A DNA stretch of 64,000 nucleotides from Dehalococcoidia bacterium (GTDB lineage: Bacteria; Chloroflexota; Dehalococcoidia; Lucifugimonadales; Lucifugimonadaceae), in NCBI GenBank assembly GCA_965220355.1, contig OZ244820.1:91319-155318 (forward strand). The letters run 5' to 3'. The position numbers and the translations under genes are program-made. Each line of letters starts with the position of its first letter. Position 1 is the stretch's first letter. Under the pieces are notes generated by a model. The model was not told where the DNA came from and searched no databases. It worked only from the letters and a program-made list of their open reading frames with translations. Of this stretch, positions 7,640-59,696 are shown one piece after another.

Positions 7640-8332
7640 ATGAGCGTCTATTCGAATGAGCGGATTGGGGCAATAAGCCAAAACGAGCTCCCACGATCCA
7701 TTCTCCGCGATGCGCGGGTGGTGATGGATGGGTTAGAACTTCTGGGACAACTACCTGAGGCTTGTGCGGCGGCGGCGTTTTTCGATCCGCAGTATCGCGG
7801 TGTGTTGGACAAACTGGGTTATGGCAACGAGGGAGTGTTGCGGGGACAGAAGCGGTCTGCGTTGCCGCAGATGTCGTCAGAGGTCATCGGCGAGTTCATT
7901 CGGGGAATTGGTAGGGTTTTGGGACCTAGTGGGCATTTGTTCCTTTGGATCGACAAATATCACCTCTGCTCTGGCATCGGTGAGTGGATCGAAGGGACGA
8001 ACCTCGAGACCGTTGACCTTGTGACCTGGAACAAGGGTCGGATGGGTATGGGCTACCGCACGCGGCGCAAGGCCGAGTATCTAATGGTTCTGCAAAAGGC
8101 TCCCAAGCGGGCGAAAGGCGTATGGACGCGGCACGACATTCCGGATGTTTGGGAGGAGAAGCCGTCGTCGAAGGTTACCCATTCGAAGCCAGTCGGGTTG
8201 CAGCAAGCGTTGCTCGAGGCGGTTACAGCGCCCGGGGATGTAGTCCTGGATCCGGCGGCGGGGAGTTTCAGCGTGATGCAGGCGTGTCAATTGGCGGGGA
8301 GAACGTTCGTGGGTTGTGATGTTAATGGGTGA
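7640..8332 (+). CDS. beta-class N6-adenine/N4-cytosine DNA methyltransferase (orphan)
   Basis: A motif IV variant FFDPQYRG lies near the N-terminus, THSKP lies in the middle, and the AdoMet motif VLDPAAGSFS lies near the C-terminus. The IV-then-I order indicates the beta class. Confidence 0.75.
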   Translation: MSVYSNERIGAISQNELPRSILRDARVVMDGLELLGQLPEACAAAAFFDPQYRGVLDKLGYGNEGVLRGQKRSALPQMSSEVIGEFIRGIGRVLGPSGHLFLWIDKYHLCSGIGEWIEGTNLETVDLVTWNKGRMGMGYRTRRKAEYLMVLQKAPKRAKGVWTRHDIPDVWEEKPSSKVTHSKPVGLQQALLEAVTAPGDVVLDPAAGSFSVMQACQLAGRTFVGCDVNG

Positions 8333-8434: not shown

Positions 8435-8563
8435 CTTGCAATTGGACGAGCATCTACCTGGCAATCATACGAGTGTTAAACTTGCAATCATACGGGCAAT
8501 AACCTTGCAATTGGACGAACACTAACCTTGCAATTGGACGAGCATCTACCTGGCAATTGGACG
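8435..8563. repeat. array of about 5.5 degenerate ~23-bp tandem repeats ([CT][TG]GCAAT followed by TGGACGA or CATACG)
   Basis: Units start near 8435, 8459, 8481, 8504, 8527 and 8551. The sequence cttgcaattggacgagcatctacctggcaat occurs twice exactly (8435-8465 and 8527-8557). The array ends at the ATG of the ATPase gene. Confidence 0.6.
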
Positions 8564-9862
8564 ATGGGACAGCATCAACTCCGCAGGCGTTTCATCGAGC
8601 CGCGCTTGGTCGAAGCGTTGGAAGATTCGCCCGCTGTCTTGATCCAGGGGCCGCGGCAGTGCGGGAAGACGACGCTCGCACAAATGGTGTGCGCGCCCGA
8701 GCATCTTCCAGAACGCGTGTCGCGGATCGGAGATGGCGAAGACCGAGGCTATGGCTATATCTCCTTCGACGATGACGTCGTCCGATTAGCCGCAGAGGCC
8801 GATCCGATGGGATTTATCGCCGAACTCCCGGAGCGTGTCGTGTTAGACGAGATACAGCGCGTACCGAGGCTTTTCACCGGACTGAAGTTGGCACTTGACC
8901 GCCGAAGAACGCCTGGGCGATTCGTTCTGACGGGCTCAACGAACGTGTTGGCGGTACCGACCGTGCAAGACTCACTTGCGGGACGTCTGGAGATGATTCC
9001 GCTGTACCCTTTGGCGCAAAGCGAACTGCACTTGCCAACCCCGACCGAACGCGGGTTCATCGACGCACTGTTCACGGACGGATTCCCAATACGCCAGACT
9101 GAACGGCTGGGAATGACTTTGATCGATCGCATCGTTGCGGGCGGCTACCCTCCGGCACTGGCACGCCCAACCGGGCGACGGCGGGCTAATTGGTACCGCA
9201 ACTTCATCGAGGCTCAGGTTCAGAGGGACGTCGGCGACGTATCGCGCATCCGAGGGCTCACTTCGCTACCGAGGTTGCTCCAGCTCGTCGCCGCGCAGAC
9301 GGCGCGGCTGTTCAATCTCTCCAACCTTTCCGCTCCTTTCCAACTCAGCCGGACCACCATTGGGGACTACGTCGCGCTACTGGAGCGTGTTTACTTGTTG
9401 GAGCTACTGCCGCCTTGGCACAGCAACTTGGGAAAACGTTTGATCAAGACACCCAAAATCCACATCGGCGACACTGGCCTAGCGTCTTCACTGCTAAGGA
9501 TGACGGAGACTGCGTTGCGGGCGAATAGGAGTTTGATGGGCGCGTTGCTGGAAACTTTTGTGTTTCAAGAGCTGCGCAGACAGGCAAGTTGGCATGACGA
9601 CACCATCGAGTTTTTCCACTATCGCGACAAGGATCAGGTGGAGGTCGATGTCGTGATGGAATCAGGTGGCATGGTTGCGGGTGTAGAAGTCAAAGCATCA
9701 TCTACCGTCACGAACTCGGACTTTCGAGGGTTACGCAAATTAAAGAGTGTTTGCGGGTCGAGTTTCGCGGGCGGCGCGGTGCTTTACGACGGCTCGACCT
9801 GCGTCGGCTTTGGCGGCGGAATGTACGCGGTTCCGATCCGGTTGCTCTGGGAAGGGGTTTAA
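8564..9862 (+). CDS. AAA ATPase with DUF4143-type C-terminal PD-(D/E)xK-like domain
   Basis: Walker A is GPRQCGKTTLA and Walker B is VVLDEIQRVP. The C-terminal YRDKDQVEVDVVME...VAGVEVKAS is nuclease-like. ATG at 8564 is preferred to the TTG at 8528, which lies inside the repeat array. Confidence 0.8.
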   Translation: MGQHQLRRRFIEPRLVEALEDSPAVLIQGPRQCGKTTLAQMVCAPEHLPERVSRIGDGEDRGYGYISFDDDVVRLAAEADPMGFIAELPERVVLDEIQRVPRLFTGLKLALDRRRTPGRFVLTGSTNVLAVPTVQDSLAGRLEMIPLYPLAQSELHLPTPTERGFIDALFTDGFPIRQTERLGMTLIDRIVAGGYPPALARPTGRRRANWYRNFIEAQVQRDVGDVSRIRGLTSLPRLLQLVAAQTARLFNLSNLSAPFQLSRTTIGDYVALLERVYLLELLPPWHSNLGKRLIKTPKIHIGDTGLASSLLRMTETALRANRSLMGALLETFVFQELRRQASWHDDTIEFFHYRDKDQVEVDVVMESGGMVAGVEVKASSTVTNSDFRGLRKLKSVCGSSFAGGAVLYDGSTCVGFGGGMYAVPIRLLWEGV

Positions 9863-15055: not shown

Positions 15056-16255
15056 TTATTCGTAGCGGAGGGCCTCGATCGGGTTGAGTCGCGCAGCTCT
15101 GACCGCGGGGTATATGCCGAAGAAAAGACCAACTGCGATCGAGACGACCATAGCGATGATAGGGATGTCACTAGTGACGCGTGTCGACCACTCGGTTCCG
15201 ATCAAGAAACGCCCGTCGATCCCGGTTGCGAGAGCGACACCCGAGATGACCCCGATAATGCCGCCGCCGAAGGTTAGGAACACGGCCTCTGTCACGAATT
15301 GTGCGACGATATCGCGTCGCTTAGCGCCCATAGCCTGTCGAATACCGATCTCGCGGGTGCGCTCGGTAACGGATACCAGCATTATGTTCATAATGCCGAT
15401 GCCGCCAACGAGCAACGAAATACCGGCAACCGTGCCGAGAAACACGACCAGCGTTTGGTTCGCTTCGTCGAAGGTCTCGAGAATCTCCTGCTGGTTGAAG
15501 ACGGTGAAATCGTCGGCCTCGGTTATTCGATGGCTGAGCCGCAGCACTGTTTCGATCTCTTCGATAGCTTGATCAACCGACTCGACGTCGCGCACCTGGA
15601 TGGAAATCTGGTCGACGCTGATGGTCCCGCCCGAGACACGTTCGCGCGCCAAGCGGTACGACGCGGTGGTTATCGGTATCAAGGCTTGGTCGTCCATTGA
15701 TCCGAAGCCGCTCTGGTTGGCGAGAACGCCAATGATCCGGAAACGTCTGCCGTTGATTCGGATCAACGCCCCTGTAGGGTCCTGATTACCGAACAGGGCC
15801 TCCGACACTTGAGCACCTAAAACGACTACTTCGGCCAGTGCCTCGACATGCGGGGCGCCGATGAAGGTACCTGTCGCCATCTCCAAATTGCGGACCTGTA
15901 AAAACTCGGGGGTAATTCCTGCCAAGGATGCCTGTGTGGTGTTGTTGTCGATGTGTATCGTGCCGAACGTGCCGATCTGCGGCGCGACAGCTTTGATGGA
16001 CGGCGTGTAGAGCGGATCTCGGAGCGCGTCCACATCGGCCAAGGTGAGAGGTTCTCCAGTTGGTATCACCGTCAACAGGTTGCTGCCGAGTCCTTGAATC
16101 AGTTCGGTGATGCGGTCGGTCGAGCCGCGGCCAATCGACATCAGCGTGATGACGGAGCAGACGCCGAGCACGATGCCGAGAAGCGCCAATGCCGCCCGCA
16201 ATCGATTCGCGGTGAGCGAGTAGATCGATGTGCGGACTATGTCGAATGGGGACAT
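15056..16255 (-). CDS. ABC transporter permease, MacB/FtsX type
   Basis: The 399-aa product has an N-terminal transmembrane segment, a large extracytoplasmic domain and a C-terminal FtsX-like 3-TM bundle. It is adjacent to a LolD/MacB-type ATPase. Confidence 0.85.
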   Translation of the reverse strand: MSPFDIVRTSIYSLTANRLRAALALLGIVLGVCSVITLMSIGRGSTDRITELIQGLGSNLLTVIPTGEPLTLADVDALRDPLYTPSIKAVAPQIGTFGTIHIDNNTTQASLAGITPEFLQVRNLEMATGTFIGAPHVEALAEVVVLGAQVSEALFGNQDPTGALIRINGRRFRIIGVLANQSGFGSMDDQALIPITTASYRLARERVSGGTISVDQISIQVRDVESVDQAIEEIETVLRLSHRITEADDFTVFNQQEILETFDEANQTLVVFLGTVAGISLLVGGIGIMNIMLVSVTERTREIGIRQAMGAKRRDIVAQFVTEAVFLTFGGGIIGVISGVALATGIDGRFLIGTEWSTRVTSDIPIIAMVVSIAVGLFFGIYPAVRAARLNPIEALRYE

Positions 16256-17029: not shown

Positions 17030-20000
17030 CTACCGCCGCGGGGGTCCGCCGCTAACGCTGGTAAAGGTTCTAACCCCTCTGAAACCACCGAATTGGCTGG
17101 TGTCAGCACCGACGACGGTCATCAGTACCGTTTCTCCTTCGGTCACCCCACCCTCGACTACGGTCCAGAAGTCGTCAGATATCCCGAGGGAGACTTTCCG
17201 CGGTTCCAGGGTGCCGTCGGGATTCGAAATCAGGAGTATCGGTTCGTTCACGGAGCCGAATAACGCTTGTATCGGGACGAGCAGCTGATCGCTCTGCTCT
17301 CGGATTATGATCTCCGCCACTGCGCTCAATCCTTCGGGCAGTTGAGTATCGCTTGGCTGGTCGGTCTGGATGGTCACCGGGTACGTAACAACGCCTTGGT
17401 TGGACTCGCCGAACGCGGCAATGTCACTGATGCGGCCAACCAGCTTTTCATCTCCGAGGGCTTCAAGCTCGATCGTTGCGGTGTCACCGACTTGGAGGAA
17501 CAGTACGTCGACCTCGTCGACCGTTCCCGATACCTCGACAATAGACGCGTCTGCGATCTCGACCATCACCGCCCCTTCGCTGGCGACTTCTCCCTCTTCA
17601 GCCATGACGGTCGAGATCAACCCGTCGAACGGCGCCACAATCTGGGCTTGTTCGATCGCCGCTCGAGCCGATTCAAGGTTCTCTCTTGCTGTGGCCACCT
17701 CAGCGCGCCGGAGGGCAACGGTGGCGGGATCAGGATTAACCAGATTATCCAACTCCTCTTGGGACGCTATGAGATCTATCCGGGCGACTTCGATCTTCTG
17801 CCTTGCGATTTGGAATTCCAGTTCATCTCGGTTAGTGAGTCGGTCAAGTTTCTCGATCTTGTCTTGGAGATCCGATCGTGCCACTTCAATTTCCTGTTTC
17901 AGAACTTCAACCTCGTTTCGATCGGGATTGAGCAGCGTTTCCAAAGTCTCGATCTTGTCAGCTAGTTCGGCCTCGGCGCCGCGCGCCTCTAGATCGGCGA
18001 CCTTGATCCCCTCATCGTCTTGCTCATTGGCTTCTTTGAAGGATTCGTGAGCGTCGTTCACAGCTTCATCTGCTTTTTTGATCCGAGATTCCGCGAGCGC
18101 TAGGTCGACGCCGGAGGGTCCAGCGTGAAGGTCTTCAAGTTTTTCCAATGCGTTTTCGAGTTCGTCTTCCGCTACCGTCACTTCGTTCTCGGCGACGTTG
18201 AGCGCTTGTTTAGCCGTGAAGAGATCGGCCTGTCGGTTCCTCGCGCGGTCGTCGAACCCCGTCAATAGTTCGGCTAGACGTTCTTGCGCGTCGATGTGCT
18301 TCAAGTTTGCGACGTCGACTTTGGCTTTCAGGTCTTGAATGACTGCTTCGTCGGTAGGTTCAAGTAATTCATCGAGTTGATCGTTGAGGTCATCTACCAA
18401 CTTCTTCGCCGCATCGAGCGCATCTTCGGCCTTGTCGAACTTCTGTGAGTTGGCGAGGGTGAATGTCCGGTACGCTTCTGATTTGATCACGAGCTCGTCC
18501 CAAGCGTTCTCAAACTCGATATTCACGCACTCGTCCGATATGCCGGTGCCGAGTTCAGAGCAGTCGAACCGTAACGTGCTCAGGAAAAACCTGTTCCATG
18601 TGGCGACAACCGCTTCATTCCAAGGCGTATCGGGGTCGTCCTCGACCCATCCGGATGAAGCGGCGTCATCTTCCCAGATGCTCCTAGTTCCGCGGGGTGC
18701 CATGATCTCGGTCAACGTCTTGCCGATGTGGGCGAAGATCTCGTCTGGCGAGGCTTTCCACTCATACATCGAGATATCCATGCCGAGCCATTTCAGGAAC
18801 ACCTCTTGATACGCGTCTCGCGCGTCTTTCAGAGGCTCTTCCAAGTCTCGCAACTCTGAATCGGTCTCAATCACCAGCTGTGTAAGCTGATCTTCGGCCA
18901 CTGGAATGTCGTTTTCAGCTTCGGTGATCTTTTCGCGCAGTTCCGTCACTTCCTCTTTGTCGTAAGGCTCTTCAGCTTCCGCCAACGCGTCCTCGGAGGT
19001 GACAAGATCGAGTTTTGCGGCGGCGACTTCGGCTTCCGCTTGCGCCACCTCTAAGTTGAAACTCAACTCATCATTAAGCGCGTTCTGCGCGTCTTTCAAT
19101 GTCTTCTCAGCTTCGAAGTCCGCGTTTTCGGCTTCCAGCAGAGCGAGTCGCGCTTTCTCAACATCAAGCTCCGCCTTGTTGATCGCTGGCACGTCAACTT
19201 TGACGAGATCGTCGTACGCCTCGATAGCGTCTTCGCTCTCTTTGATCGCCTCGTTCAACGCGTGTTCTGCGTTCGCGATTTCTGAGTTGTCTAAAACTTG
19301 GAGGTCTGCCCATTTCTGTCTGGCATCGTCTACTGCTTGAAGTGCTTCGGAAACCGCCAATTCGGCCTTCTCGACCTCGATCTGAGGTGGGGCTGTCAGG
19401 TCACCGAGCTTAGTTTCAGCGTCGGCTAGAGATTGTTCAGCCTTAGCGACGGCCAGCGCGGCGTTTTGGATATCGAGATCTGGTGGATCCAAAAGATCGT
19501 TGAGCTTCCCTTCGGCATTTGCCAGTTTCTGGGTTCCCTCGAGAATTTTGAGTGTCGCGTCGTCGATCTTTTTCTGGTCAGGGTTGATGAGATCGTCGAG
19601 AGCCTGTTCGGAGTCTTGCAGAGCAACGCTCGCGTCTTGAAGCTTTTGGTCCGCTGCAACGGCTGCATCGTTTTGTAACGACATCAGCACATCGCCTTCC
19701 GATACGAAGTCACCTACGCCGACATTGACCGATTCGACCGTCCCGCCCAATCCGAATGAAAGCCGCTCCCGATTGGCGTACTCCAAGGTCCCATTGACCG
19801 CAACGGAGTTGACTAAGTCGCCGCGCCGGATGGTGAGTAACTGGGTTTCGGCGTCCTCAGCGACACCGTACTCCGAAAGAACCGCGTCGATCGGCGACTC
19901 CCCTTCGAGTTGGTCTTGGACGTAGGGGTAGAGGTAGTAAGCACCGAAATACGTGCCGGCGGGCACTGCGACCAAGACGATCAGTGCGATCAACCACTGG

Positions 20001-51445: not shown

Positions 51446-52252
51446 ATGACCTCTAAAGAACAATTGTCTAACGCTTCGAGTGCCCAATCGACCGCGAACA
51501 AGGCGGTCATTCAAGTCCGTGACCTTCGAAAAAGCTACAAAGATATCGTCGCGGTTGACGGCATCTCCTTCGAAGTGCATCACGGCGAGATCTTCGGCAT
51601 GCTAGGTCCTAACGGCGCCGGCAAGACCACCACGGTAGAAATCCTCGAAGGCCTGCGCGATCTCGATAGCGGCGAAGCCTACATCAACGGCCTCGACGTA
51701 ACCAAAAATGCGAAACGCGTCAAAGGCATGATCGGGGTCCAGCTCCAACAAAACGCCTTCTTCGACAATCTCAACCTCCGCGAAACGATCCAACTATTCG
51801 CAACGCTCTATGGCTCGGACATGCAGCCGGAAGACGCGCTCGAGAAGGTCGACCTCGCAGAGCGTGCCAAGTCGCAGTACCGGCACCTTTCAGGCGGCCA
51901 GAAGCAACGCCTCTCAATCGCCGTCGCCCTCGTAAACACCCCTGTAGCCATGTTCCTCGACGAGCCCACGACCGGACTCGACCCGCAAGCCCGCCGGAGA
52001 ATGTGGGACCTCATCGACAACCTACGATCCGAAGGCATGGCCATCATGCTAACGACCCACTATATGGAAGAAGCCGAAGTCCTCTGCGACCGCGTAGCCG
52101 TCATCGACCACGGCAACATCGTCGCCCTAGACACCCCACAAGCCCTAGTCGATCAACTAACCGAACGCGGTGCCGTTGCCGTCCGCAAAGATGGCGTCCT
52201 AACCCTAGAAGACGTCTTCATAGACCTAACCGGGCGGAGTCTCATCGAGTAG
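51446..52252 (+). CDS. ABC-2 type exporter ATP-binding protein
   Basis: Motifs GPNGAGKTT, LSGGQKQRL and MFLDEPTTGLD are present. Confidence 0.9.
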   Translation: MTSKEQLSNASSAQSTANKAVIQVRDLRKSYKDIVAVDGISFEVHHGEIFGMLGPNGAGKTTTVEILEGLRDLDSGEAYINGLDVTKNAKRVKGMIGVQLQQNAFFDNLNLRETIQLFATLYGSDMQPEDALEKVDLAERAKSQYRHLSGGQKQRLSIAVALVNTPVAMFLDEPTTGLDPQARRRMWDLIDNLRSEGMAIMLTTHYMEEAEVLCDRVAVIDHGNIVALDTPQALVDQLTERGAVAVRKDGVLTLEDVFIDLTGRSLIE

Positions 52253-52289
52253 AAATCACGTGACCTTTTGTCCCCTCGCCCCACCGTGA

Positions 52290-52560
52290 GACCATTGCAA
52301 AACTCCCGTCATTCCCGCGGACGCGGGAATCCAGAATCAACAAAGCACGCCTTTTCACTCCATCCCGGCGACAACCACCGTCCCATTCGCTCGGCGAAGG
52401 GGACGCGAGCAAGCGGAGCGTCGCTCGCAGGGGATGTACAAATTCCTGACCACAAACCATTGGCGATCTTCAGCGAGGGTTTCGCATCGGTCTCCACCGT
52501 GGGAGAGGGTTAGAACCTGCCCCGGACTTGATCCGGGGGTGAGGGGGCGCCGAAACGATC
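52290..52560. repeat. composite dispersed-repeat element inside the ATPase-permease spacer
   Basis: It contains the palindrome cgtcATTCCCGCGgaCGCGGGAATcc (52308-52332). It also contains the module gcgaaggggacgcgagcaagcggagcg (52394-52420), the hairpin CCCCGGActtgaTCCGGGG (52520-52538) and gtgagggggcg. Related modules occur at 62800-62930, 24397-24420 and 3371-3406. Confidence 0.55.
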
Positions 52561-52564
52561 CACC

Positions 52565-53683
52565 ATGCGCATCTACCAAGCATTCATAATCGCCGAACTC
52601 AAAATGTTCTTCCGCGACCGCGCAGCGCTCTTCTGGACGCTCGCGTTCCCCACCGTAATGATGGTCGTATTCGGACTCTTCAACTTCGGCGGGTTCGAAC
52701 CGCCCGAAGTCGGAATCGTCGACAACGCGAAGAACGACGCGTCAAAGGTCTTGGTCTCGGTTTTGAAAGGCGAGTTCGACGGCGAACCCCTCTACAACGT
52801 GCCCGAATCCGAGGACCCGGAGCAACTGCGAGCCGAGATCCTGGGAGGCGACATCACCGCCTTGATGGTGATCCCGGAGGGCTTCGGCGAAAGTGGGGCA
52901 GCTTCGGTGATAGATCTCACATTCGACGGCAGAAAAGCGCAGGAAGCTGAGGCCGCCCGAGCCATCTTGGGCCAAGTGCTCGACGGGGTATTCAAGACAG
53001 TCGCTGACGTTCCATCCGAATATCGCGTCGAAAACTGGGCGACGGTATCACTCACCGAAGTCGCCGGGCGAGGGCAGGGCTACAAAGGCTTCGTGGTCCC
53101 CGGCATCATATCGCTATCCATCATGCAGAGCGCACTCTTCGGCGTTGTCTTCACCCTCGTCAGACTCCGCAATCAAGGCGTCCTCAAACGACTCCACGCC
53201 ACACCCATCAACCCCAGACACTTCCTAGCTGGAGCGCTCTTCACACGCATGCTGCTGCTGATAATGCAGACTTACGTCCTTCTCCTAGTCGGCATCTTCG
53301 TATCCGGAGTCGAAGTCGCGCCCGGCTACGCCATGTTTTGGTTAGAAGTAATTCCGCTCATCTTCCTCGGAGGCATCGTATTCGCCTCCCTCGGACTCGC
53401 TGTATCCGGCATCGCCAAAACCGAAAACACCGCCGCTCCCCTCGCCAACATCATCTCACTACCGATGATGTTCTTGTCCGGCGTCTTCATCCCACACTCC
53501 GTCATCCCCGACTGGGTAGTCGCCTTCGCCAAATGGCTCCCCCTCACCTTCCTCGCCGACGCCATGCGAGAAATGGTCAACAGCGGCGAAACCCTCTTCA
53601 TCCAAGGCGCATCCATCCTAGGCCTCGCAGCCTGGGCAATAATCTGCTTCGGCCTCGCCGTCCGCGCCTTTAGGTGGGAGTAG
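52565..53683 (+). CDS. ABC-2 type exporter permease
   Basis: The 372-aa product has an N-terminal transmembrane segment, an extracytoplasmic loop and a 5-TM C-terminal ABC2_membrane-like region. It is paired with the upstream ATPase. Confidence 0.85.
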   Translation: MRIYQAFIIAELKMFFRDRAALFWTLAFPTVMMVVFGLFNFGGFEPPEVGIVDNAKNDASKVLVSVLKGEFDGEPLYNVPESEDPEQLRAEILGGDITALMVIPEGFGESGAASVIDLTFDGRKAQEAEAARAILGQVLDGVFKTVADVPSEYRVENWATVSLTEVAGRGQGYKGFVVPGIISLSIMQSALFGVVFTLVRLRNQGVLKRLHATPINPRHFLAGALFTRMLLLIMQTYVLLLVGIFVSGVEVAPGYAMFWLEVIPLIFLGGIVFASLGLAVSGIAKTENTAAPLANIISLPMMFLSGVFIPHSVIPDWVVAFAKWLPLTFLADAMREMVNSGETLFIQGASILGLAAWAIICFGLAVRAFRWE

Positions 53684-53924
53684 CAGCATTATTATTGCGC
53701 GTCAACCTAGTCGGACGGATTTCTGCGACAAAGAATGACAGTGCATTCGGCGGGGCAAGAGGCCGAACCGACAGATGCTTGCCGGTCAGTGATCGACGTT
53801 CTGATTGACCGCAAGTAAAGAAAAATCGTATTTTTGGTTGGCACGGCACGGCGAACCCTGAATTGCTGGCAAGGACGATACTTGCGGTTGACTCAGTTGG
53901 TATCGTGAACTTAGAGCGTTGGTA

Positions 53925-53942
53925 ACATCAACTGATTGATGT
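53925..53942. promoter_or_regulatory. palindrome ACATCAActgaTTGATGT 19 nt upstream of the HTH-ImmA/IrrE start; candidate operator
   Basis: The palindrome is read directly from the sequence. Its function is inferred. Confidence 0.25.
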
Positions 53943-53960
53943 GTTGGAAATTCATGGTTT

Positions 53961-55142
53961 ATGGCACGCGGGAGTTTACAAGCGACAGTTGAATTACAGC
54001 CGTCGGTGCTGCGATGGGCGCGCGAGCGAGCTGGGCTTGATGAAGAACAACTCGCGGCGAAACTCAGGATAGGGTCCGAGGCCGTCACTGGTTGGGAAGA
54101 AACGGGTTCGATTACTTTCGCAAAGGTCGATGCGTTGTCGAAGTCGACTTATACGCCAGTCGGATACCTATTTTTGGCCGAGCCACCAGACGAAGGTCTA
54201 CCGATTACAGACTTTCGGGTGCGGCAGGGCGCCGATCCGTTGCGAGCGAGTCCCGATCTACTTGAGACGGTATACCAAATGCAGCGACGGCAGCTTTGGA
54301 TGAGAGAAGAACTCATTTTCCATGAAATGCCAGCCTTAGACTTCGTCGGTTCATTCGATTTGAGTTCGCCGCCGCAGGTGGTTTCTGCGGCTATGGTCGA
54401 AACATTGGGTCTCGATGGCGGTTGGGCCGCGACCGAAGGCAGTTGGACCGATGCTTTGCGCAATTTGCGCAACCACATCGAATCTGCTGGTGTGCTGGTC
54501 GTGTTCAACGGCGTCGTAGGCAACGATACACATCGAATATTGAATCCTCATGAATTTCAGGGATTTGCCTTGGCTGACGATTACGCTCCCTTGATCTTTG
54601 TCAACAACGCGGATTACAAAACTGCTCAGATTTTCACGTTGGCTCATGAGTTGGCTCATCTATTCGTGAATCAACCTGGTCTGTCCAAACTAGAAAATCT
54701 ACAACCCACAGATCACGAAACGGAAGAGGTGTGCAACCAAATCGCCGCTGAATTCCTCGTGCCCGAAATGGAACTACGCCGGTTTTGGCGGTCTGCCGAT
54801 TTCGCCGAAGATCTGTACCAAGCAGTAGCTCGACGTTTCAAAGTAAGTACGGTGGTCGCGGCTCGGCGCGCTCTTGACACTCAACTGATAGCGCGGGAAG
54901 AATTTTTCGACTATTACGAAGAGAACAAGGAAAAGAATTGGGCTGGATCATATCCAACTGCATCGCAACGTGGCGGCGACTTTTGGATCAACCAACAATG
55001 GCGTTTAGGTTTCCGTTTTGGCGCATCGGTGTTTCGCGCCGTTAAAGAAGGTCGGTTGTCGTATCGCGAGGCGTATAACCTTACGGGTTTGAAGGGTGAT
55101 ACTTTTGCCAACATGGCGGACAAGATGGGGTTTGTGCATTGA
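53961..55142 (+). CDS. XRE-type HTH fused to ImmA/IrrE family zinc metallopeptidase (COG2856-like)
   Basis: The N-terminal HTH reads LRWARERAGLDEEQLAAKLRIGSEAVTGWE. The HExxH motif lies in FTLAHELAHLF. Confidence 0.8.
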   Translation: MARGSLQATVELQPSVLRWARERAGLDEEQLAAKLRIGSEAVTGWEETGSITFAKVDALSKSTYTPVGYLFLAEPPDEGLPITDFRVRQGADPLRASPDLLETVYQMQRRQLWMREELIFHEMPALDFVGSFDLSSPPQVVSAAMVETLGLDGGWAATEGSWTDALRNLRNHIESAGVLVVFNGVVGNDTHRILNPHEFQGFALADDYAPLIFVNNADYKTAQIFTLAHELAHLFVNQPGLSKLENLQPTDHETEEVCNQIAAEFLVPEMELRRFWRSADFAEDLYQAVARRFKVSTVVAARRALDTQLIAREEFFDYYEENKEKNWAGSYPTASQRGGDFWINQQWRLGFRFGASVFRAVKEGRLSYREAYNLTGLKGDTFANMADKMGFVH

Positions 55143-55663
55143 CACACCCACGACGCCGTGACGATGTTGGGAGGTCATTTACGTTGGACGCCAACGTCTT
55201 TATGGCCGCGTGGCACGACCATTACCCACCAGACCTTTATCCAGGCTTCTGGGAGTGCCTTGAGCGTTATTCATGTGCTGGAAATCTGGTAATTATCGAT
55301 CGAGTTAACAACGAGATCATCAGCCCAAGTGGGTTAATCGGTTGGTTAGATCGAAATTGGCGCGGATCGTTGGGTTCGACGAGGGAGCGAGGGGTAGTCG
55401 CAGTTTTCAGCCAGATGCAGAGATGGGTGCAAACCAATCCTCAGTTCCTACCGGCGGGCAAAAACGAGTTCGCGGGAACAGCAGATGGGTGGTTGGCTGC
55501 TTATGCCAAAGTCCACGGCACCATCGTCGTGACCAACGAAGTTTTTGACGCCAACATCCGACGGCGTGTGCCGCTACCAAATCTGTGCAGGCAATTTGGA
55601 GTCCCGTACGTCAACACGCTTGGCATGTTGCGTGGACTCGGCGTCAGGTTTGATCTTAGGTAG
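55139..55663 (+). CDS. DUF4411 (PIN-like) family protein
   Basis: LDANVFMAAW...YPGFWECLE...ADGWLAAYAKVHGTIVVTNE...VPLPNLCRQFGVPYVNTLGMLRGLG matches the DUF4411 pattern as remembered. The gene overlaps the upstream stop. The exact start is uncertain. Confidence 0.65.
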   Translation: MTHPRRRDDVGRSFTLDANVFMAAWHDHYPPDLYPGFWECLERYSCAGNLVIIDRVNNEIISPSGLIGWLDRNWRGSLGSTRERGVVAVFSQMQRWVQTNPQFLPAGKNEFAGTADGWLAAYAKVHGTIVVTNEVFDANIRRRVPLPNLCRQFGVPYVNTLGMLRGLGVRFDLR

Positions 55664-55698
55664 ACGGCAACAGACCGACCGTTCACGCCGTTGGCTAG

Positions 55699-55920
55699 GG
55701 ACAGCGCAAGAGGATTTCGGTGATTGAACTGAACGATACTTAAATGCTGGAACACCCGAACCAAGACCGATACCCAGGGCAGTTTATATACCTAGTGGAG
55801 ATCGACAGCTACGTACACCTAGTTCCTTTCGTGATGCAGACTGACGGCACCCGTTTTCTGAAGACGATCATTCCCAGCCGTAAGGCGACGAGAGACTATC
55901 TGAGGGACCGCCCAACATGA
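55699..55920 (+). pseudogene. decayed BrnT-like toxin gene (N-terminal loss plus in-frame TAA at 55741)
   Basis: The frame reads GQRKRISVIELNDT*MLEHPNQDRYPGQFIYLVEIDSYVHLVPFVMQTDGTRFLKTIIPSRKATRDYL. The tail (FLKTIIPSRKAT) is typical of the short toxin family paired with BrnA-like antitoxins. Only the 58-aa C-terminal piece has an ATG, and that piece ends in an ATGA overlap with brnA. Confidence 0.5.
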
Positions 55921-56192
55921 ACGACAAATTGAGCCCAGAAGAGCGTGACATTCTCGAAAGATTCGAGCAAAACGAGCTACGTCCAATTCCTGACGCTGAA
56001 CGCGAGGCCGAGTTTGCCCGCCAGGCCGCACAAAACACGTTCAAGAAAACCAAGCGCGTGAATCTGCGAGTAACCGAACGCGACTTCAATCTCGCACATG
56101 CAAGAGCAAGGGAAGAAGGAATACCCTATCAAACACTACTCTCAAGCGTCATCCACAAGTACCTCTCCGGACGGTTGACTGACAAGAGATAA
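55917..56192 (+). CDS. BrnA-like (CopG/RHH) antitoxin
   Basis: The 91-aa product contains ...KRVNLRVTERDFNLAHARAREEGIPYQTLLSSVIHKYLSGRL, typical of the BrnA family. Confidence 0.7.
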   Translation: MNDKLSPEERDILERFEQNELRPIPDAEREAEFARQAAQNTFKKTKRVNLRVTERDFNLAHARAREEGIPYQTLLSSVIHKYLSGRLTDKR

Positions 56193-56197
56193 ATGCA

Positions 56198-56328
56198 CCT
56201 CGCCGACGCCACGCGAGGAATGGTCAAGGCGGCGAAACCCTCTTTCCAGGGCCGCTCCACCCGCGGCCTAACCATCTGGGCGATAATCAGCCTACGCCTC
56301 GACGTCCGTGCCTTCAATTTGGGAGTAG
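56198..56328 (+). pseudogene. second, decayed copy of the ABC-2 permease 3' end
   Basis: It aligns by eye to 53551-53683: cctcgccgacgccacgcgaggaatggtcaag...gggcgataatc...ttgggagtag. One codon is deleted and a +1 shift occurs near the end. Confidence 0.75.
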
Positions 56329-56342
56329 TTTCTCGCGTCGGG

Positions 56343-56747
56343 CTATGAGATCACAGGGCCCTTCAATTCCGGAAAATACGTGGAGAAGAAACCCCGGTCG
56401 CGTGTGAGGAAAACATCAGCAGTCGCGACGGCGTGAGCGCCGATTAGAAAGTCGGTTATTATTCGTTCCCGCGGTCCGCCAGCTGCGCGGTAGAGTTTCC
56501 AACGCATTCCCGCTTCGTAGGCGATTGCTGAATCGATGGGCGAGAGCGCGGCACCTATCTCGCGCACGGCATCGTCTAGCAACACGCGTTCGGCGAAATG
56601 GGGGGCTACCTCGGCGTACACAACATCGCAAATCACGATAGCGCCGCCGTCATAGGCCTGCCTAAGCAGTTCTCTCGATTTTGAATGATGCGGCGAATTC
56701 GTTCGAAACAGATCTATCAATACATTGGTGTCAATCGCAGTTATCAA
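56343..56747 (-). CDS. vapC: PIN domain toxin VapC
   Basis: The start is MITAIDTNVLIDLF. The 134-aa product has a 4-nt overlap with the upstream antitoxin. Confidence 0.85.
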   Translation of the reverse strand: MITAIDTNVLIDLFRTNSPHHSKSRELLRQAYDGGAIVICDVVYAEVAPHFAERVLLDDAVREIGAALSPIDSAIAYEAGMRWKLYRAAGGPRERIITDFLIGAHAVATADVFLTRDRGFFSTYFPELKGPVIS

Positions 56748-56962
56748 CGTCCCCTGATTTCCTCAATGTATTCATCGACGTCGAAATCGGAGCCGTCCAG
56801 TATTCCAGCGACTCTGTCCACCGGGTGTTGCCCGTCCACGCGCTTACGTATCAGCAAACCCTCGTCGGTGGGAGTGACCTCGACCTCTACGTCGTGATGC
56901 ATTCCGAAGCGTTCCCGCAATTTCTTGGGGATGGTTATCTGGCCACGCTCAGATATTCGCAT
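56744..56962 (-). CDS. vapB: AbrB/SpoVT/MazE-type antitoxin VapB
   Basis: The start is MRISERGQITIPKKLRERFG. The internal ATG at 56962 is preferred to the ORF-track start at 57088. Confidence 0.8.
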   Translation of the reverse strand: MRISERGQITIPKKLRERFGMHHDVEVEVTPTDEGLLIRKRVDGQHPVDRVAGILDGSDFDVDEYIEEIRGR

Positions 56963-57060
56963 ATCGACCTCCCATGGATTTCTGAATATCCAAATCATAC
57001 CAAACAATACGTACCAACCCATCGCCCTTTGCCCCAGGTTGCGCCCGCGTATTTCCGGTA

Positions 57061-57152
57061 CCCCCTTTAATCCAAGGCGCGTCCACACTGGGCCTAGCTG
57101 CCTGTTCCGCGATCACCTTCGCCCTTGCCGCCCAGGCCTTTAGGTGGCAGTA
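57061..57152 (+). pseudogene. third copy of the ABC-2 permease 3' end (probable ancestral end)
   Basis: It translates in frame to LIQGASTLGLAACSAITFALAAQAFRWQ*, compared with FIQGASILGLAAWAIICFGLAVRAFRWE* in the intact gene. Its stop (57150-57152) overlaps the 3' end of the convergent hydrolase gene. Confidence 0.7.
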
Positions 57153-57967
57153 ACGCCCTGCACCAAATCACAATCGGCCAAAAACTCCTCCATCGCCGCG
57201 TAATACCCCTCCGGATCGTAGTAATCCGCCCCATTATGCGGCGCACCCTTGATCACGTAGAAACGCTTCGGCCCCCTCACCGCGTCGTACACCTTCCGAC
57301 CAGAATCAATCGACACGATCTCATCGAACTCCGAGTGCATCACCAGCACCGGACACAGTACGTCGCCAGCGTGAGACACCGTATCGAACCGGTTGTGAAT
57401 GAACCTCTCGATCGGCAAGAACCGCCACGGCGTCATCGTCTTCGCCAAATCCGGTATCGACGATATCGGACACTCCAATATCAAGGCGTCCGGCGACACC
57501 TCAGACGCCAACCTCGTTGCAACCGCACCTCCCAAGCTCCGACCGAAATAGACGATTGATGGACGTTCCTCAAAAGGCAGTCCGATCACATACTCATCGA
57601 TCCAACGCCGAGCCGCAATCGCGTCCATCGCAAATCCCTCCTCGCTCGGACTACCCTCGCTCAACCCATAACCTCGATACTCCATCGCAAAAATGTCGAT
57701 AAACCGGAATCGCGTCACGAACTCCCGATACTGGTCCAACCGAACGCTGATGTTCCCACCATTGCCATGCGTGATCAACATAACAATGCGACGTTGTGTC
57801 GGCTCCTCACTATCCTCACCCCTGATGAACCAAGCGTGCGTCTTCACGCCGTCATCAGCCGTCAACCATACGTCCTCGTACTCCAGGCCGACATGCGACG
57901 GGTCGCCCCGCAACTGTGGCTGCGGAAAGAAGATGAACGATGCTTCAAATGCGCTGGGCGTATGCAT
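57140..57967 (-). CDS. alpha/beta hydrolase
   Basis: LITHGNGGN, the YRGYGLSEG region and the nucleophile elbow GRSLGG are present. Confidence 0.8.
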   Translation of the reverse strand: MHTPSAFEASFIFFPQPQLRGDPSHVGLEYEDVWLTADDGVKTHAWFIRGEDSEEPTQRRIVMLITHGNGGNISVRLDQYREFVTRFRFIDIFAMEYRGYGLSEGSPSEEGFAMDAIAARRWIDEYVIGLPFEERPSIVYFGRSLGGAVATRLASEVSPDALILECPISSIPDLAKTMTPWRFLPIERFIHNRFDTVSHAGDVLCPVLVMHSEFDEIVSIDSGRKVYDAVRGPKRFYVIKGAPHNGADYYDPEGYYAAMEEFLADCDLVQGVTAT

Positions 57968-57991: not shown

Positions 57992-58774
57992 TTAGGCCCG
58001 ATGGACCTTCGGAACCTCAACCTTCATGTGCGTCATCGGCTTCCAACCTAGGTCGCGCTCAGCCTTAGATAGGTTGTGCTCAACGTGGTCCTCATCCCCG
58101 GCGATAAAGAAAGGTTCGAACGAACCGTGCCCAACCTGGACGAAGTTGGCCGCTGCCATGTAAGCATTCGCCAAGTCCTCCTCGTCAGTTACAAGTAGAG
58201 GCCGTGCGTCACTCGGGTCGACCTCATACGCCGCGCTCCGATAATCAATCCACTGCTCCCGAGTTCGCGGTCCCGTGATCCGCAACGCCGCCAAATTCAT
58301 ATCGAAATGCCGCGCGAAATACCGGCATATCAACTCGCCGAAACCCTTCGACAATCCATAAGCGCTCGGCGTATCCAACGGCACCTCGTCTTCCGACGCA
58401 TACCAGTCGCGATATCGAAAGTGAACGCTCATCGTGCTCGTGTAGACGCCGTTCCGCAACCCGTTGTTGTAACCCGTCCACAAGAACAGATGCAAACCCA
58501 TGTTGTTTACCGTGTAGTTCTCCCGGATCACCTTCTCATCTTGGTCCGTCACCGAACCTCCCTGCGGACTCTGCATCACCAACCAGATGAAGGTATCGAC
58601 CCCATCAACCGCCTCCTTGATCGCACCCGTATCTGTAACTGACCCCTGCACGAACTCAACTCCATCATGCCGCGGCGGCACCAAATCGAACACCCGCAGA
58701 TCATGCACCTCCCGAAGATAAGGAGTGATAAACGTCCCGACGTGCCCAGAACCGCCGACTAGGAGAATTTTCAT
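57992..58774 (-). CDS. NAD(P)-dependent epimerase/dehydratase family protein
   Basis: MKILLVGGSGHVGTFI is a Rossmann motif. Confidence 0.8.
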   Translation of the reverse strand: MKILLVGGSGHVGTFITPYLREVHDLRVFDLVPPRHDGVEFVQGSVTDTGAIKEAVDGVDTFIWLVMQSPQGGSVTDQDEKVIRENYTVNNMGLHLFLWTGYNNGLRNGVYTSTMSVHFRYRDWYASEDEVPLDTPSAYGLSKGFGELICRYFARHFDMNLAALRITGPRTREQWIDYRSAAYEVDPSDARPLLVTDEEDLANAYMAAANFVQVGHGSFEPFFIAGDEDHVEHNLSKAERDLGWKPMTHMKVEVPKVHRA

Positions 58775-58878
58775 GGCCGATTTGCCTCGCCTCGGTTGGT
58801 TGATAGTCTGCGGTGGATTATACGGCGATGCGCGCTCCGCCCCACAACCATCTCGATCACGAGTAGATTCGTCTCTTC

Positions 58879-59262
58879 CTACGTGGAAACGGCCGAGGGT
58901 TCGGCAACATCGACCTCGACTCCATCTGTGGATGCTGCACCGTTTACACGCGTCTCATCCTCATCCGCAGGCGATTGATCATCCGGAACAGGTTCAAAAC
59001 TAATCCTCAACCGCGTACCTGTGGCTTTGGCGTACTTGGAAAGCGTCTTCATCGACGGATTCGACCTACCACCCTCAAGCCGAGCCACCGCCGATTGCGT
59101 GGTCTTCATTCGCTCGGCAAGCTCTGATTGAGTCAGCGCCGCACCGGCCCGCGCGCCAATCAAAGCGCCCACGAGTTGATAAACCTCGCCGGATGCTTCA
59201 TGCGCTTCGCGGTACGCACTTGATTTCATCATGTCTTTGTGCAGATCTTCGATGTACGTCAT
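58879..59262 (-). CDS. XRE-family HTH antitoxin (HigA-like)
   Basis: The HTH is LTQSELAERMKTTQSAVARLEGG. There is an ATGA overlap with the upstream toxin gene. Confidence 0.8.
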   Translation of the reverse strand: MTYIEDLHKDMMKSSAYREAHEASGEVYQLVGALIGARAGAALTQSELAERMKTTQSAVARLEGGRSNPSMKTLSKYAKATGTRLRISFEPVPDDQSPADEDETRVNGAASTDGVEVDVAEPSAVST

Positions 59263-59594
59263 TTCTCGATCTCCCTTGCGCGGCGCAGAGCCAAAGCAAT
59301 CTCGCGTCTCGGTGTTCGTTGCGACTTTTTGACAAATGCCCTCAATATGACGACTCGACGTTCACGAACGGTCACGTATAGAGCCCGCGCGATGCCGCTT
59401 CGCCCTCTCAAACGAATCTCCCACAGCGCACCAGACAAATGCCGGACATGCGGCATGCTGACGAACTCGATACCGTGATTCTCGATCAATCGGGAGATCC
59501 GGACGAATTCATTGATCATATCGTCAGGTAACGATCTGATCTCCCTGCGAACCGTCGCGTTGACAATCTCAACAGTCCACCTATTCGAAACCAT
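59259..59594 (-). CDS. RelE/HigB superfamily toxin (phage Gp49-like)
   Basis: The 111-aa product contains ...LWEIRLRGRSGIARALYVTVRERRVVILRAFVKKSQRTP, typical of the family. The gene order is toxin first. Confidence 0.75.
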   Translation of the reverse strand: MVSNRWTVEIVNATVRREIRSLPDDMINEFVRISRLIENHGIEFVSMPHVRHLSGALWEIRLRGRSGIARALYVTVRERRVVILRAFVKKSQRTPRREIALALRRAREIEK

Positions 59595-59696
59595 AATATA
59601 TCACTTCTGCTATATTGACGCGTGCCAAGGCGATCACGTCCTGCCGTGAAAAAACGTCCAACTCCGAACCCTACCTCAACGTCCGATTTACGCCAA

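Follow-up and report, generated by a model that had tools for sequence, protein, structure and literature searches.

Tandem copies of a permease gene end in a Dehalococcoidia bacterium as probable scars of stacked alternative alleles

The gene for an ABC-2 permease of a Dehalococcoidia bacterium (GCA_965220355.1, contig OZ244820.1) was followed by two further copies of its own last ~130 nucleotides (nt), the three gene ends bracketing two islets of toxin-antitoxin (TA) and defence genes. The copies are probably the scars of general recombination, both homologous and illegitimate, that stacked alternative alleles of the locus. The gap between the permease gene and a convergent alpha/beta hydrolase gene is a recombination hotspot with alternative alleles in a clade of sponge-associated Dehalococcoidia. 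The window, that is, the whole stretch of DNA that was analysed, is 64 kb long (positions 91,319 to 155,318 of the contig). The loci of relatives are designated by L-numbers and positions in the gene end are counted from the permease stop, set at 0.

The similarity of the copies was assessed with blastn and Smith-Waterman alignments against shuffled controls. Copy 1 (53551-53683), the working gene end, was 78.4% identical to copy 2 (56198-56328) over 134 columns, with a blastn E of 3e-24 and z=44 relative to the shuffles, while the segment from 53592 to 53682 was 75.8% identical to copy 3 (57063-57152) over 91 nt (E 2.6e-12, z=22). These pairwise alignments established that the threefold recurrence of the permease end, proposed earlier in a sequence-only reading of the window, is real. 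When copies 2 and 3 were compared head-on, the similarity was scarcely above chance (z=2.4). Copies 2 and 3 were both recovered by a profile derived from 31 functional gene ends (E 6e-18 and 1e-11, respectively), and a self-comparison of the whole window showed no further copies elsewhere in the 64 kb. The three copies had the same orientation and were arranged in tandem inside 3.6 kb. According to Pfam, the repeated piece encodes the conserved last transmembrane segment of the permease. Exact blocks of 14 and 16 nt were common to copies 1 and 2. The best matches of copies 2 and 3 among the functional ends were all 76-84% identical, which was uninformative on their origin.

Copy 2 had acquired five small indels in the local alignment with copy 1, more damage than the one lost codon and +1 shift originally described, and its substitutions were evenly distributed over the three codon positions (6/7/9), which marks it as older and decayed. 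Copy 3 was still in frame, with the translation LIQGASTLGLAACSAITFALAAQAFRWQ followed by a stop at 57151-57153, and overlapped the hydrolase open reading frame (ORF) on the minus strand by 14 nt. The reading frame and the overlap of the stop with the hydrolase gene had been described correctly, the end coordinate of 57152 had not, as the stop reaches one base further, to 57153. Copy 3 broke two residues that are invariant across the 31 functional genes, and 11 of its 21 differences from the working end were at third codon positions (P=0.056). The layout with two displaced copies was also present in a separate complete metagenome-assembled genome (MAG), L001, in which copy 3 was 100% identical, and is therefore not an assembly artefact. 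The gene order was identical in the Logan assembly of run ERR13605531, which is possibly from the same source as the window, and an exact protein look-up of ImmA and VapC returned only the same contig from that run.

The junctions of the copies indicated what they are. In every genome, the vapC stop was located 13-14 nt past the true permease stop or the pseudo-stop of the copy. Moreover, the segment from 56198 to 57015 in the window, comprising copy 2 and vapBC, was colinear with the permease end and vapBC of L010 (71% identity over 828 nt). Because the vapC spacing is that of the single-islet loci and because of the colinearity with L010, copy 2 was identified as a gene end that once abutted vapBC. 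Copy 3, in turn, was identified as the original gene end left in place because it has kept the native 14-nt overlap with the hydrolase gene, as in the empty site of L008. The proposals that the copies are displaced gene ends, and that copy 3 is the original one in its native setting, were thus borne out by junctions that other genomes have at real gene ends. What appear to be eroded remnants of this region were seen upstream of vapB in L006, L010, L012, L028 and L003, both by eye and in a weak alignment with a mean column identity of 40%; such remnants would point to an old vapBC insertion common to these loci.

A scan of one genome per species gave 62 loci with the permease, 30 of which were in Dehalococcoidia MAGs, many of them labelled as sponge or SAR202 bins. 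The amino acid identity of the permease across the 62 genome loci was 75-98%. A metagenome scan with the permease gave three loci and nothing new. Alleles were compared at 31 orthologous loci of sponge-associated Dehalococcoidia, with 21 kb covered per relative. The flanks were common to the Dehalococcoidia loci, with genes for a MOSC protein, the ABC transporter ATPase and the permease on one side and for the hydrolase and an epimerase on the other. Two sites were empty, L008, where the permease and hydrolase genes overlap by 14 nt, and L056, where they are separated by a 59-nt gap. The sole cargo was vapBC in L006, L012, L016-L020, L023 and L025, and a Phd-PIN pair in L004, L007, L027 and L029. 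L005 and L009 had BrnTA and a 48-nt partial copy, and L032 and L048 had islands of ~8 kb with restriction-modification, Fic or PaREP1 genes. Stacked arrays were found in L001 (BrnTA, copy, vapBC, copy), L011 and L015 (Phd-PIN, a 160-nt copy at 92% identity, vapBC, Fn3 protein), L010 (vapBC, copy, Phd-PIN, hydrolase fragment, methyltransferase), and also in L026, L028 and L003. In most of the single-islet loci no second copy was detectable. The cargo states were patchy on a tree of the permease gene from which the last 170 nt had been left out, and the empty L008 was nested among occupied relatives with 91-95% nucleotide identity. The occurrence of empty, single and stacked alleles agrees with the serial arrival of islets at a reusable hotspot that had been suggested from the window.

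The synteny of the hydrolase and epimerase genes was lost immediately after vapBC in L002 and immediately after the permease gene in L013, and the core genes that followed included long ORFs of 1235 and 950 residues that are, by appearance, putative DNA polymerases. The hotspot therefore also marks breakpoints of chromosomal rearrangement.

The boundaries of the permease copies varied from event to event, at about -160/-147, -131, -88/-83 and about -35. Only the boundary linked to BrnTA recurred. In the window, L001, L005 and L009 this copy began at about -131, 5-6 nt past the brnA stop, and the BrnA proteins of these four genomes were only 76-78% identical; the recurrent boundary may go back to a single event. 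The opposite flank was duplicated as well. In L028, a 1111-nt repeat (96% identity) that comprises the hydrolase gene and the 3' third of the epimerase gene surrounded vapBC. In L010, 251 nt of the hydrolase gene were duplicated (85%) around a methyltransferase gene, L003 had a 162-nt hydrolase duplication, and L048 a 189-nt duplication (93%) around PIN and p321 genes. L028 was also considered as a clean two-parent junction, which was ruled out by the ~190 nt that intervene between the epimerase fragment and the permease remnant.

One join, in L011, could be read against sequences of the types it connects. With a slash at the join and at the corresponding positions, L007 reads ...CACCCAAAAACTCCCCC/ATCGCCGC (short form ...CACCCAAAAACTCCCCC/ATCGCC) past the Phd-PIN pair into the end of the hydrolase gene, the sequence of the permease gene is ...GATGGCTCCCCC/TCACCTTCCTCGCC (shorter form ...ATGGCTCCCCC/TCACCTTCC) and the L011 junction reads ...CACCCAAAAACTCCCCC/TCACCTTCCTCGCC (shorter form ...AAAAACTCCCCC/TCACCTTCC). 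The hydrolase end of one allele was thus joined to permease position -147 of another inside a 7-nt microhomology, CTCCCCC. L026 interrupts the same Phd-PIN/hydrolase-end sequence at another point. The L011 copy differed from the gene end of its own locus at 12 positions, 10 of which were third codon positions, with no indel (P=5e-4), and is therefore the end of another functional allele and not an in-place duplicate.

Comparison of the window with its close relative L001 pointed to a third event and to an exchange of brnTA. The two sequences were colinear up to 53685 and again from 55753 (L001 is about 95% identical at the nucleotide level), and the intervening block, 53686-55752 with the genes for ImmA and DUF4411, stood in for 231 bp of L001 that include the 5' part of brnT. 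The block carried no gene-end copy and was absent from L001. As judged from the sequence, it appears to have entered separately, as a third event and the most recent insertion block, and had been overlooked in the sequence-only reading. Identity to L001 was 97-100% outside the region and 98-100% again from vapC onward. It was only 52-90% in the stretch that starts with the final ~70 nt of the permease gene and closes with copy 2, with a drop from 97-100% to 75-85% over 53587-53676. The brnTA genes of the window were 87.5% identical in nucleotide sequence to those of the distant L028, whose other genes were about 70-75% identical, and BrnA shared 92% of its residues with the L028 protein and 78% with that of L001. 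The divergent block and the likeness to L028 therefore indicate that modules were exchanged by recombination. The homology with L028 stopped at the brnA stop, beyond which L028 has a ThsB-type TIR gene and no permease copy; the gene-end copy is therefore not part of the brnTA unit.

These observations suggested a mechanism in which donor DNA with another allele of the hotspot would undergo one homologous crossover in a conserved flank, here in or upstream of the permease gene, while the other end of the donor would be joined illegitimately, at a microhomology, inside the 3' part of the resident permease gene. The incoming piece would bring a complete gene end with its own cargo, and the truncated resident end would be pushed downstream together with the resident cargo. 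The window could have arisen in four steps, 1) an empty site with a 14-nt overlap of the permease and hydrolase genes, 2) entry of vapBC and a new gene end at about -88, which would leave copy 3, 3) entry of BrnTA and a new gene end at about -131, which would leave copy 2, and 4) replacement of 231 bp, including the 5' part of brnT, by the genes for the RmrA-like ImmA and DUF4411, and a crossover some 70 nt ahead of the permease stop.

Several points weigh against this interpretation, 1) for neither join in the window are the parents at hand, and the microhomology join of L011 would be extended to these older joins by analogy, 2) the shared start at -131 beside divergent BrnA proteins in four genomes is also what a site-specific element would be expected to give, although it can be explained by one old event followed by allele exchange, 3) the first arrival of each module beside the permease gene is not explained by allele exchange, 4) the join in L028 was not a simple two-parent one, since about 190 nt of it are of unknown origin, 5) the coverage of 21 kb per relative leaves room for a recombinase elsewhere in the genomes and 6) these uncultured bacteria are not known to take up DNA (competence).

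The copies could alternatively serve as portable homology arms. RecA would recombine copy 1 with one of the copies downstream of it and so set free the cargo and one copy as a circle, which would re-enter at the permease end of other strains by a Campbell-type single crossover, with no dedicated recombinase. The cargo indeed lies between direct repeats that measure 90-160 nt and reach 1.1 kb in L028, the gene geometry of the empty L008, nested among occupied relatives, was perfectly restored, as a repeat-mediated deletion would leave it, and the block that diverges between the window and L001 had the permease end as its left limit and the end of copy 2 as its right limit. However, neither a circular form nor a hybrid junction was observed, the second copy was undetectable in most single-islet loci, and the repeats of the window, at 76-78% identity and with indels, are now poor substrates for RecA. 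The first duplication would still need an illegitimate event, so this scheme would add to the stacking of alleles by general recombination and not replace it. It is fairly unlikely; if true, TA cassettes would become self-propagating without a recombinase, and conserved convergent gene ends would be reusable docking sites across the symbiont community.

It is unlikely that the islets are degenerate site-specific integrative elements, resembling the cis-mobilizable elements (CIMEs) that derive from ICEs with a protein-gene 3' end as target. Each islet would then have supplied a replacement gene end as attP, and the integrase would have disappeared or would work in trans from another part of the genome. 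As in attL and attR, direct repeats of the gene 3' end in the same orientation bracket accessory cargo, the 14- and 16-nt exact blocks of copies 1 and 2 could serve as a core, and the 21-kb scope would allow a distant integrase; the main support is the BrnTA-linked repeat that starts at about -131 in the window, L001, L005 and L009 despite BrnA identities of 76-78%. Pfam was run on the islets of the window and on the large islands of L032, L048, L026, L028 and L010, and the other cargo ORFs were matched by tblastn to proteins scanned in this way. The cargo ORFs so covered, across the 31 orthologous loci, contained no domain of an integrase, resolvase or transposase, which upheld the observation that the islets have no recombinase. 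The ORFs beside the only tRNA gene of the window (tRNA-Ser) encode Fpg and an SDR protein and no integrase. IMG/VR contained no relative of the permease protein and no viral contig with the permease gene or an extended permease end.

A phage or provirus attP was also sought with a 17-mer of the copy and rejected, the 95 exact matches in IMG/VR being attributable to chance, none of which was extended by the gene-end profile. An integron would differ in that the repeated unit here is a gene end in direct orientation. No recombinase domain indicative of an intI integrase was found in the ORFs scanned around the islets, and none of the inverted repeats listed between 51000 and 59000 was a closely spaced, attC-like imperfect palindrome at a cassette boundary.

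Degenerate elements are further disfavoured by the varying repeat boundaries, by the hydrolase and epimerase fragments (up to 1.1 kb and two genes), which would need several target specificities, by the L011 join of a hydrolase end to a permease end at a 7-nt microhomology, and by the end of the homology between the brnTA regions of the window and L028 at the brnA stop, which means that the module did not bring the copy along. The parallel to site-specific integration at tRNA genes that had been drawn from the window is not sustained by these results, and the same evidence favours homologous and illegitimate recombination between alleles over an unknown trans-acting mobilisation.

An origin in place, by local tandem duplication followed by decay or as the remnants of paralogous permease genes, would account for the tandem orientation within 3.6 kb and for the clear decay of copy 2 (five indels, even substitutions over codon positions), but is very improbable and largely refuted, because no permease homology was found upstream of the copies, where the cargo genes abut directly (brnA stop at 56192, copy 2 from 56198), because copies 2 and 3 are hardly alike (z=2.4) and hold junctions known elsewhere as real gene-end contexts, and because most differences of the L011 copy and of copy 3 from the working end are in third codon positions, so that these two copies diverged as functional alleles.

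The features of the locus are summarised in Table 1. The gene assignments made from the ORFs alone (HTH-ImmA/IrrE, DUF4411, brnT remnant, brnA, vapBC and hydrolase) were upheld by Pfam. The type II TA family domains encountered were PIN and MazE/AbrB for vapBC and a CopG-type domain, below the cut-off, for BrnA. The BrnT_toxin match was found in the intact BrnT of L009, also below the cut-off, and the brnT of the window is truncated.

Table 1. Features of the permease-hydrolase hotspot in the window
Feature	Position	Strand	Remarks
ABC transporter ATPase gene	51446-52252	+	Upstream partner of the permease; Pfam ABC_tran, E 1e-29; synteny kept in all Dehalococcoidia loci
ABC-2 permease gene, 372 aa	52565-53683	+	Conserved left flank of the hotspot; Pfam ABC2_membrane_3, E 2e-42
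Copy 1, working permease 3' end	53551-53683	+	Last ~70 nt are a different allele from the closest relative
HTH-M78 and DUF4411 insertion block	53686-55752	+	L001 has 231 bp here instead, with the 5' part of brnT among them
HTH-M78 peptidase (ImmA/IrrE, RmrA-like), 393 aa	53961-55142	+	Pfam Peptidase_M78; PADLOC RmrA, E 7e-18
DUF4411 PIN-like protein gene	55139-55663	+	Pfam DUF4411
brnT remnant, 58 aa	55744-55920	+	Residues 38-95 of full-length BrnT; tblastn with the intact 95-aa BrnT of L009
brnA antitoxin gene, 91 aa	55917-56192	+	Pfam CopG_antitoxin match under the curated cut-off (E 2e-4)
Copy 2, decayed permease end	56198-56328	+	From about -131 to 0; identity to copy 1 78%
vapC, PIN toxin, 134 aa	56343-56747	-	Pfam PIN, E 1.5e-13; same site in about 20 relatives
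vapB, AbrB/MazE-type antitoxin, 72 aa	56744-56962	-	Pfam MazE_antitoxin, E 4e-6
Copy 3, original permease end	57063-57153	+	Positions about -88 to 0; in frame
Alpha/beta hydrolase gene	57140-57967	-	Conserved right flank; Pfam Hydrolase_4/Abhydrolase_1; syntenic in relatives
NAD-dependent epimerase-family gene	57992-58774	-	Second conserved right-flank gene; Pfam Epimerase; fragments duplicated in L028 and L010

The HTH-M78 protein matched the PADLOC models of RmrA, a component of Rosmer, with a best E of 7e-18 and over nearly its full length at E 4e-10. No PADLOC model matched its DUF4411 partner, so that no recognised RmrT toxin was found beside the RmrA-type protein. Judged by these family matches, the two genes are possibly a Rosmer-like pair with a PIN-like toxin.

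The ATPase-permease pair (51446-53683) was 72-84% identical in amino acid sequence to pairs in Acidobacteriota MAGs (L021, L024 and L030-L062, from Thermoanaerobaculia, 'Ca. Multivorans' and Holophagales, several of them from sponges), where the genes are separated by about 14 nt and lack the Dehalococcoidia flanks (MOSC protein, hydrolase). This distribution suggests a cross-phylum transfer of the two-gene operon between co-resident symbionts. The spacer between the ATPase and permease genes (52253-52564) was 312 nt in the window and 60-70 nt in relatives such as L005 and L007. It contained a palindromic repeat, GTCATTCCCGCGGACGCGGGAATC, with a hairpin at 52308-52331, that was also present in L001, L009, L011, L013 and L015 and adjoined the upstream region of vapB in L011, L015 and L026; the segment 52329-52436 was 89% identical to 19938-20046 of L001. 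The repeat looks like a dispersed element of the repetitive extragenic palindromic (REP) or miniature inverted-repeat transposable element (MITE) type. Within the permease gene, a segment at about 53465-53523 (gene nt 900-959) was 86-100% identical in the window and all Dehalococcoidia loci, while the rest of the gene was only 67-80% identical in some genomes (for example L028), an unusually strong conservation of synonymous sites at nt 900-959.

A second hotspot was located between the epimerase gene and folB (58775-59696), where the window had a HigB(Gp49)/HigA-HTH pair. The HigBA alleles of the window and L001 were 62-71% identical in amino acid sequence, and the flanks were 94-98% identical. 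The site was empty in L020 (13469-13525, a 56-nt gap) and nearly empty in L006, and in L010 a 156-nt fragment of the epimerase 5' end was duplicated there (15235-15390 and 17191-17346, 97% identity). Farther from the locus, a perfect 31-nt direct repeat has one unit (8435-8465) just upstream of an AAA_14/DUF4143 ATPase gene (8528-9862) and the other (8527-8557) where that gene starts. The ATPase gene adjoins a DNA methylase gene (7640-8332), and the region may be another accessory islet.

Sponge symbionts are known for their many TA and defence genes. The locus is a clear natural record of the accumulation of accessory modules at a hotspot that lacks mobility genes. A fossil of a core-gene end from the flank stands at each join, and the microhomology of one recent join is visible, so that the turnover of a hotspot can be traced stepwise in uncultured sponge symbionts. 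The locus reveals no new mobilisation mechanism, and it cautions that direct repeats of a gene end need not be attachment sites.

Integrase-less hotspots of defence and TA genes between core genes are familiar from the core defence hotspots of Pseudomonas aeruginosa and from surveys of Escherichia coli, and their turnover is ascribed to recombination in the flanks. The present locus resembles them in its fixed intergenic position, in the alternative defence and TA cargo of different strains and in the lack of mobility genes. Unlike in those hotspots, the alleles were stacked in tandem, with datable gene-end fossils at each join. Integration into the 3' ends of protein genes, and integrase-less derivatives, are established for ICESt1 and ICESt3, which use fda, and for CIMEs. 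Direct repeats of a gene 3' end around cargo, tandem accretion and a replacement gene end are features in common with these elements. The differences are that no recombinase was found at the site in the 31 relatives, that the boundaries vary, that the other flank was duplicated and that one join is at a microhomology.

Homology-facilitated illegitimate recombination, as the experiments of de Vries & Wackernagel 2002, Prudhomme et al. 2002 and Meier & Wackernagel 2003 are cited in PMC5361080 and PMC2884548, would similarly use one conserved flank as the anchor and a microhomology (7 nt in L011) at the other end, and would have the same outcome, foreign DNA trapped beside conserved genes. As cited there, the experiments were carried out in naturally transformable bacteria, whereas the present case was read from the sequences of uncultured Dehalococcoidia and the joins of the window are not traceable to their parents. 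Homology-assisted illegitimate recombination has also been given a role at dimorphic variable segments (PMC2884548), with which the pattern of the locus agrees.

The nearest counterparts are the arrays formed by sequential displacement, that is, the C-terminal displacement of Rhs proteins, the orphan modules of contact-dependent inhibition (CDI) systems and the effector-immunity arrays of Vibrio cholerae's type VI secretion system (T6SS; Kirchberger et al. 2017, PMC5361080). A literature search on TA insertion with duplication of a flank found nothing specific. In these arrays, as in the window, L001, L010 and L011/L015, a full gene is followed by 3' fragments in the same orientation, each beside older cargo, with the newest module nearest to the gene. 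The modules come from other strains with no dedicated recombinase, by a proposed homologous anchor and illegitimate join, and the fragments derive from different horizontally acquired alleles, as indicated here by the third-position differences of the L011 copy (10/12) and copy 3 (11/21) and by the 87.5% identity of brnTA in the window and L028. The locus differs from the Rhs, CDI and T6SS arrays in that what is repeated is only a scar, the conserved end of a housekeeping transporter gene, and not a polymorphic toxin domain with an immunity gene, and in that the cargo consists of self-contained type II TA pairs on either strand, with fragments of the opposite flank trapped as well.

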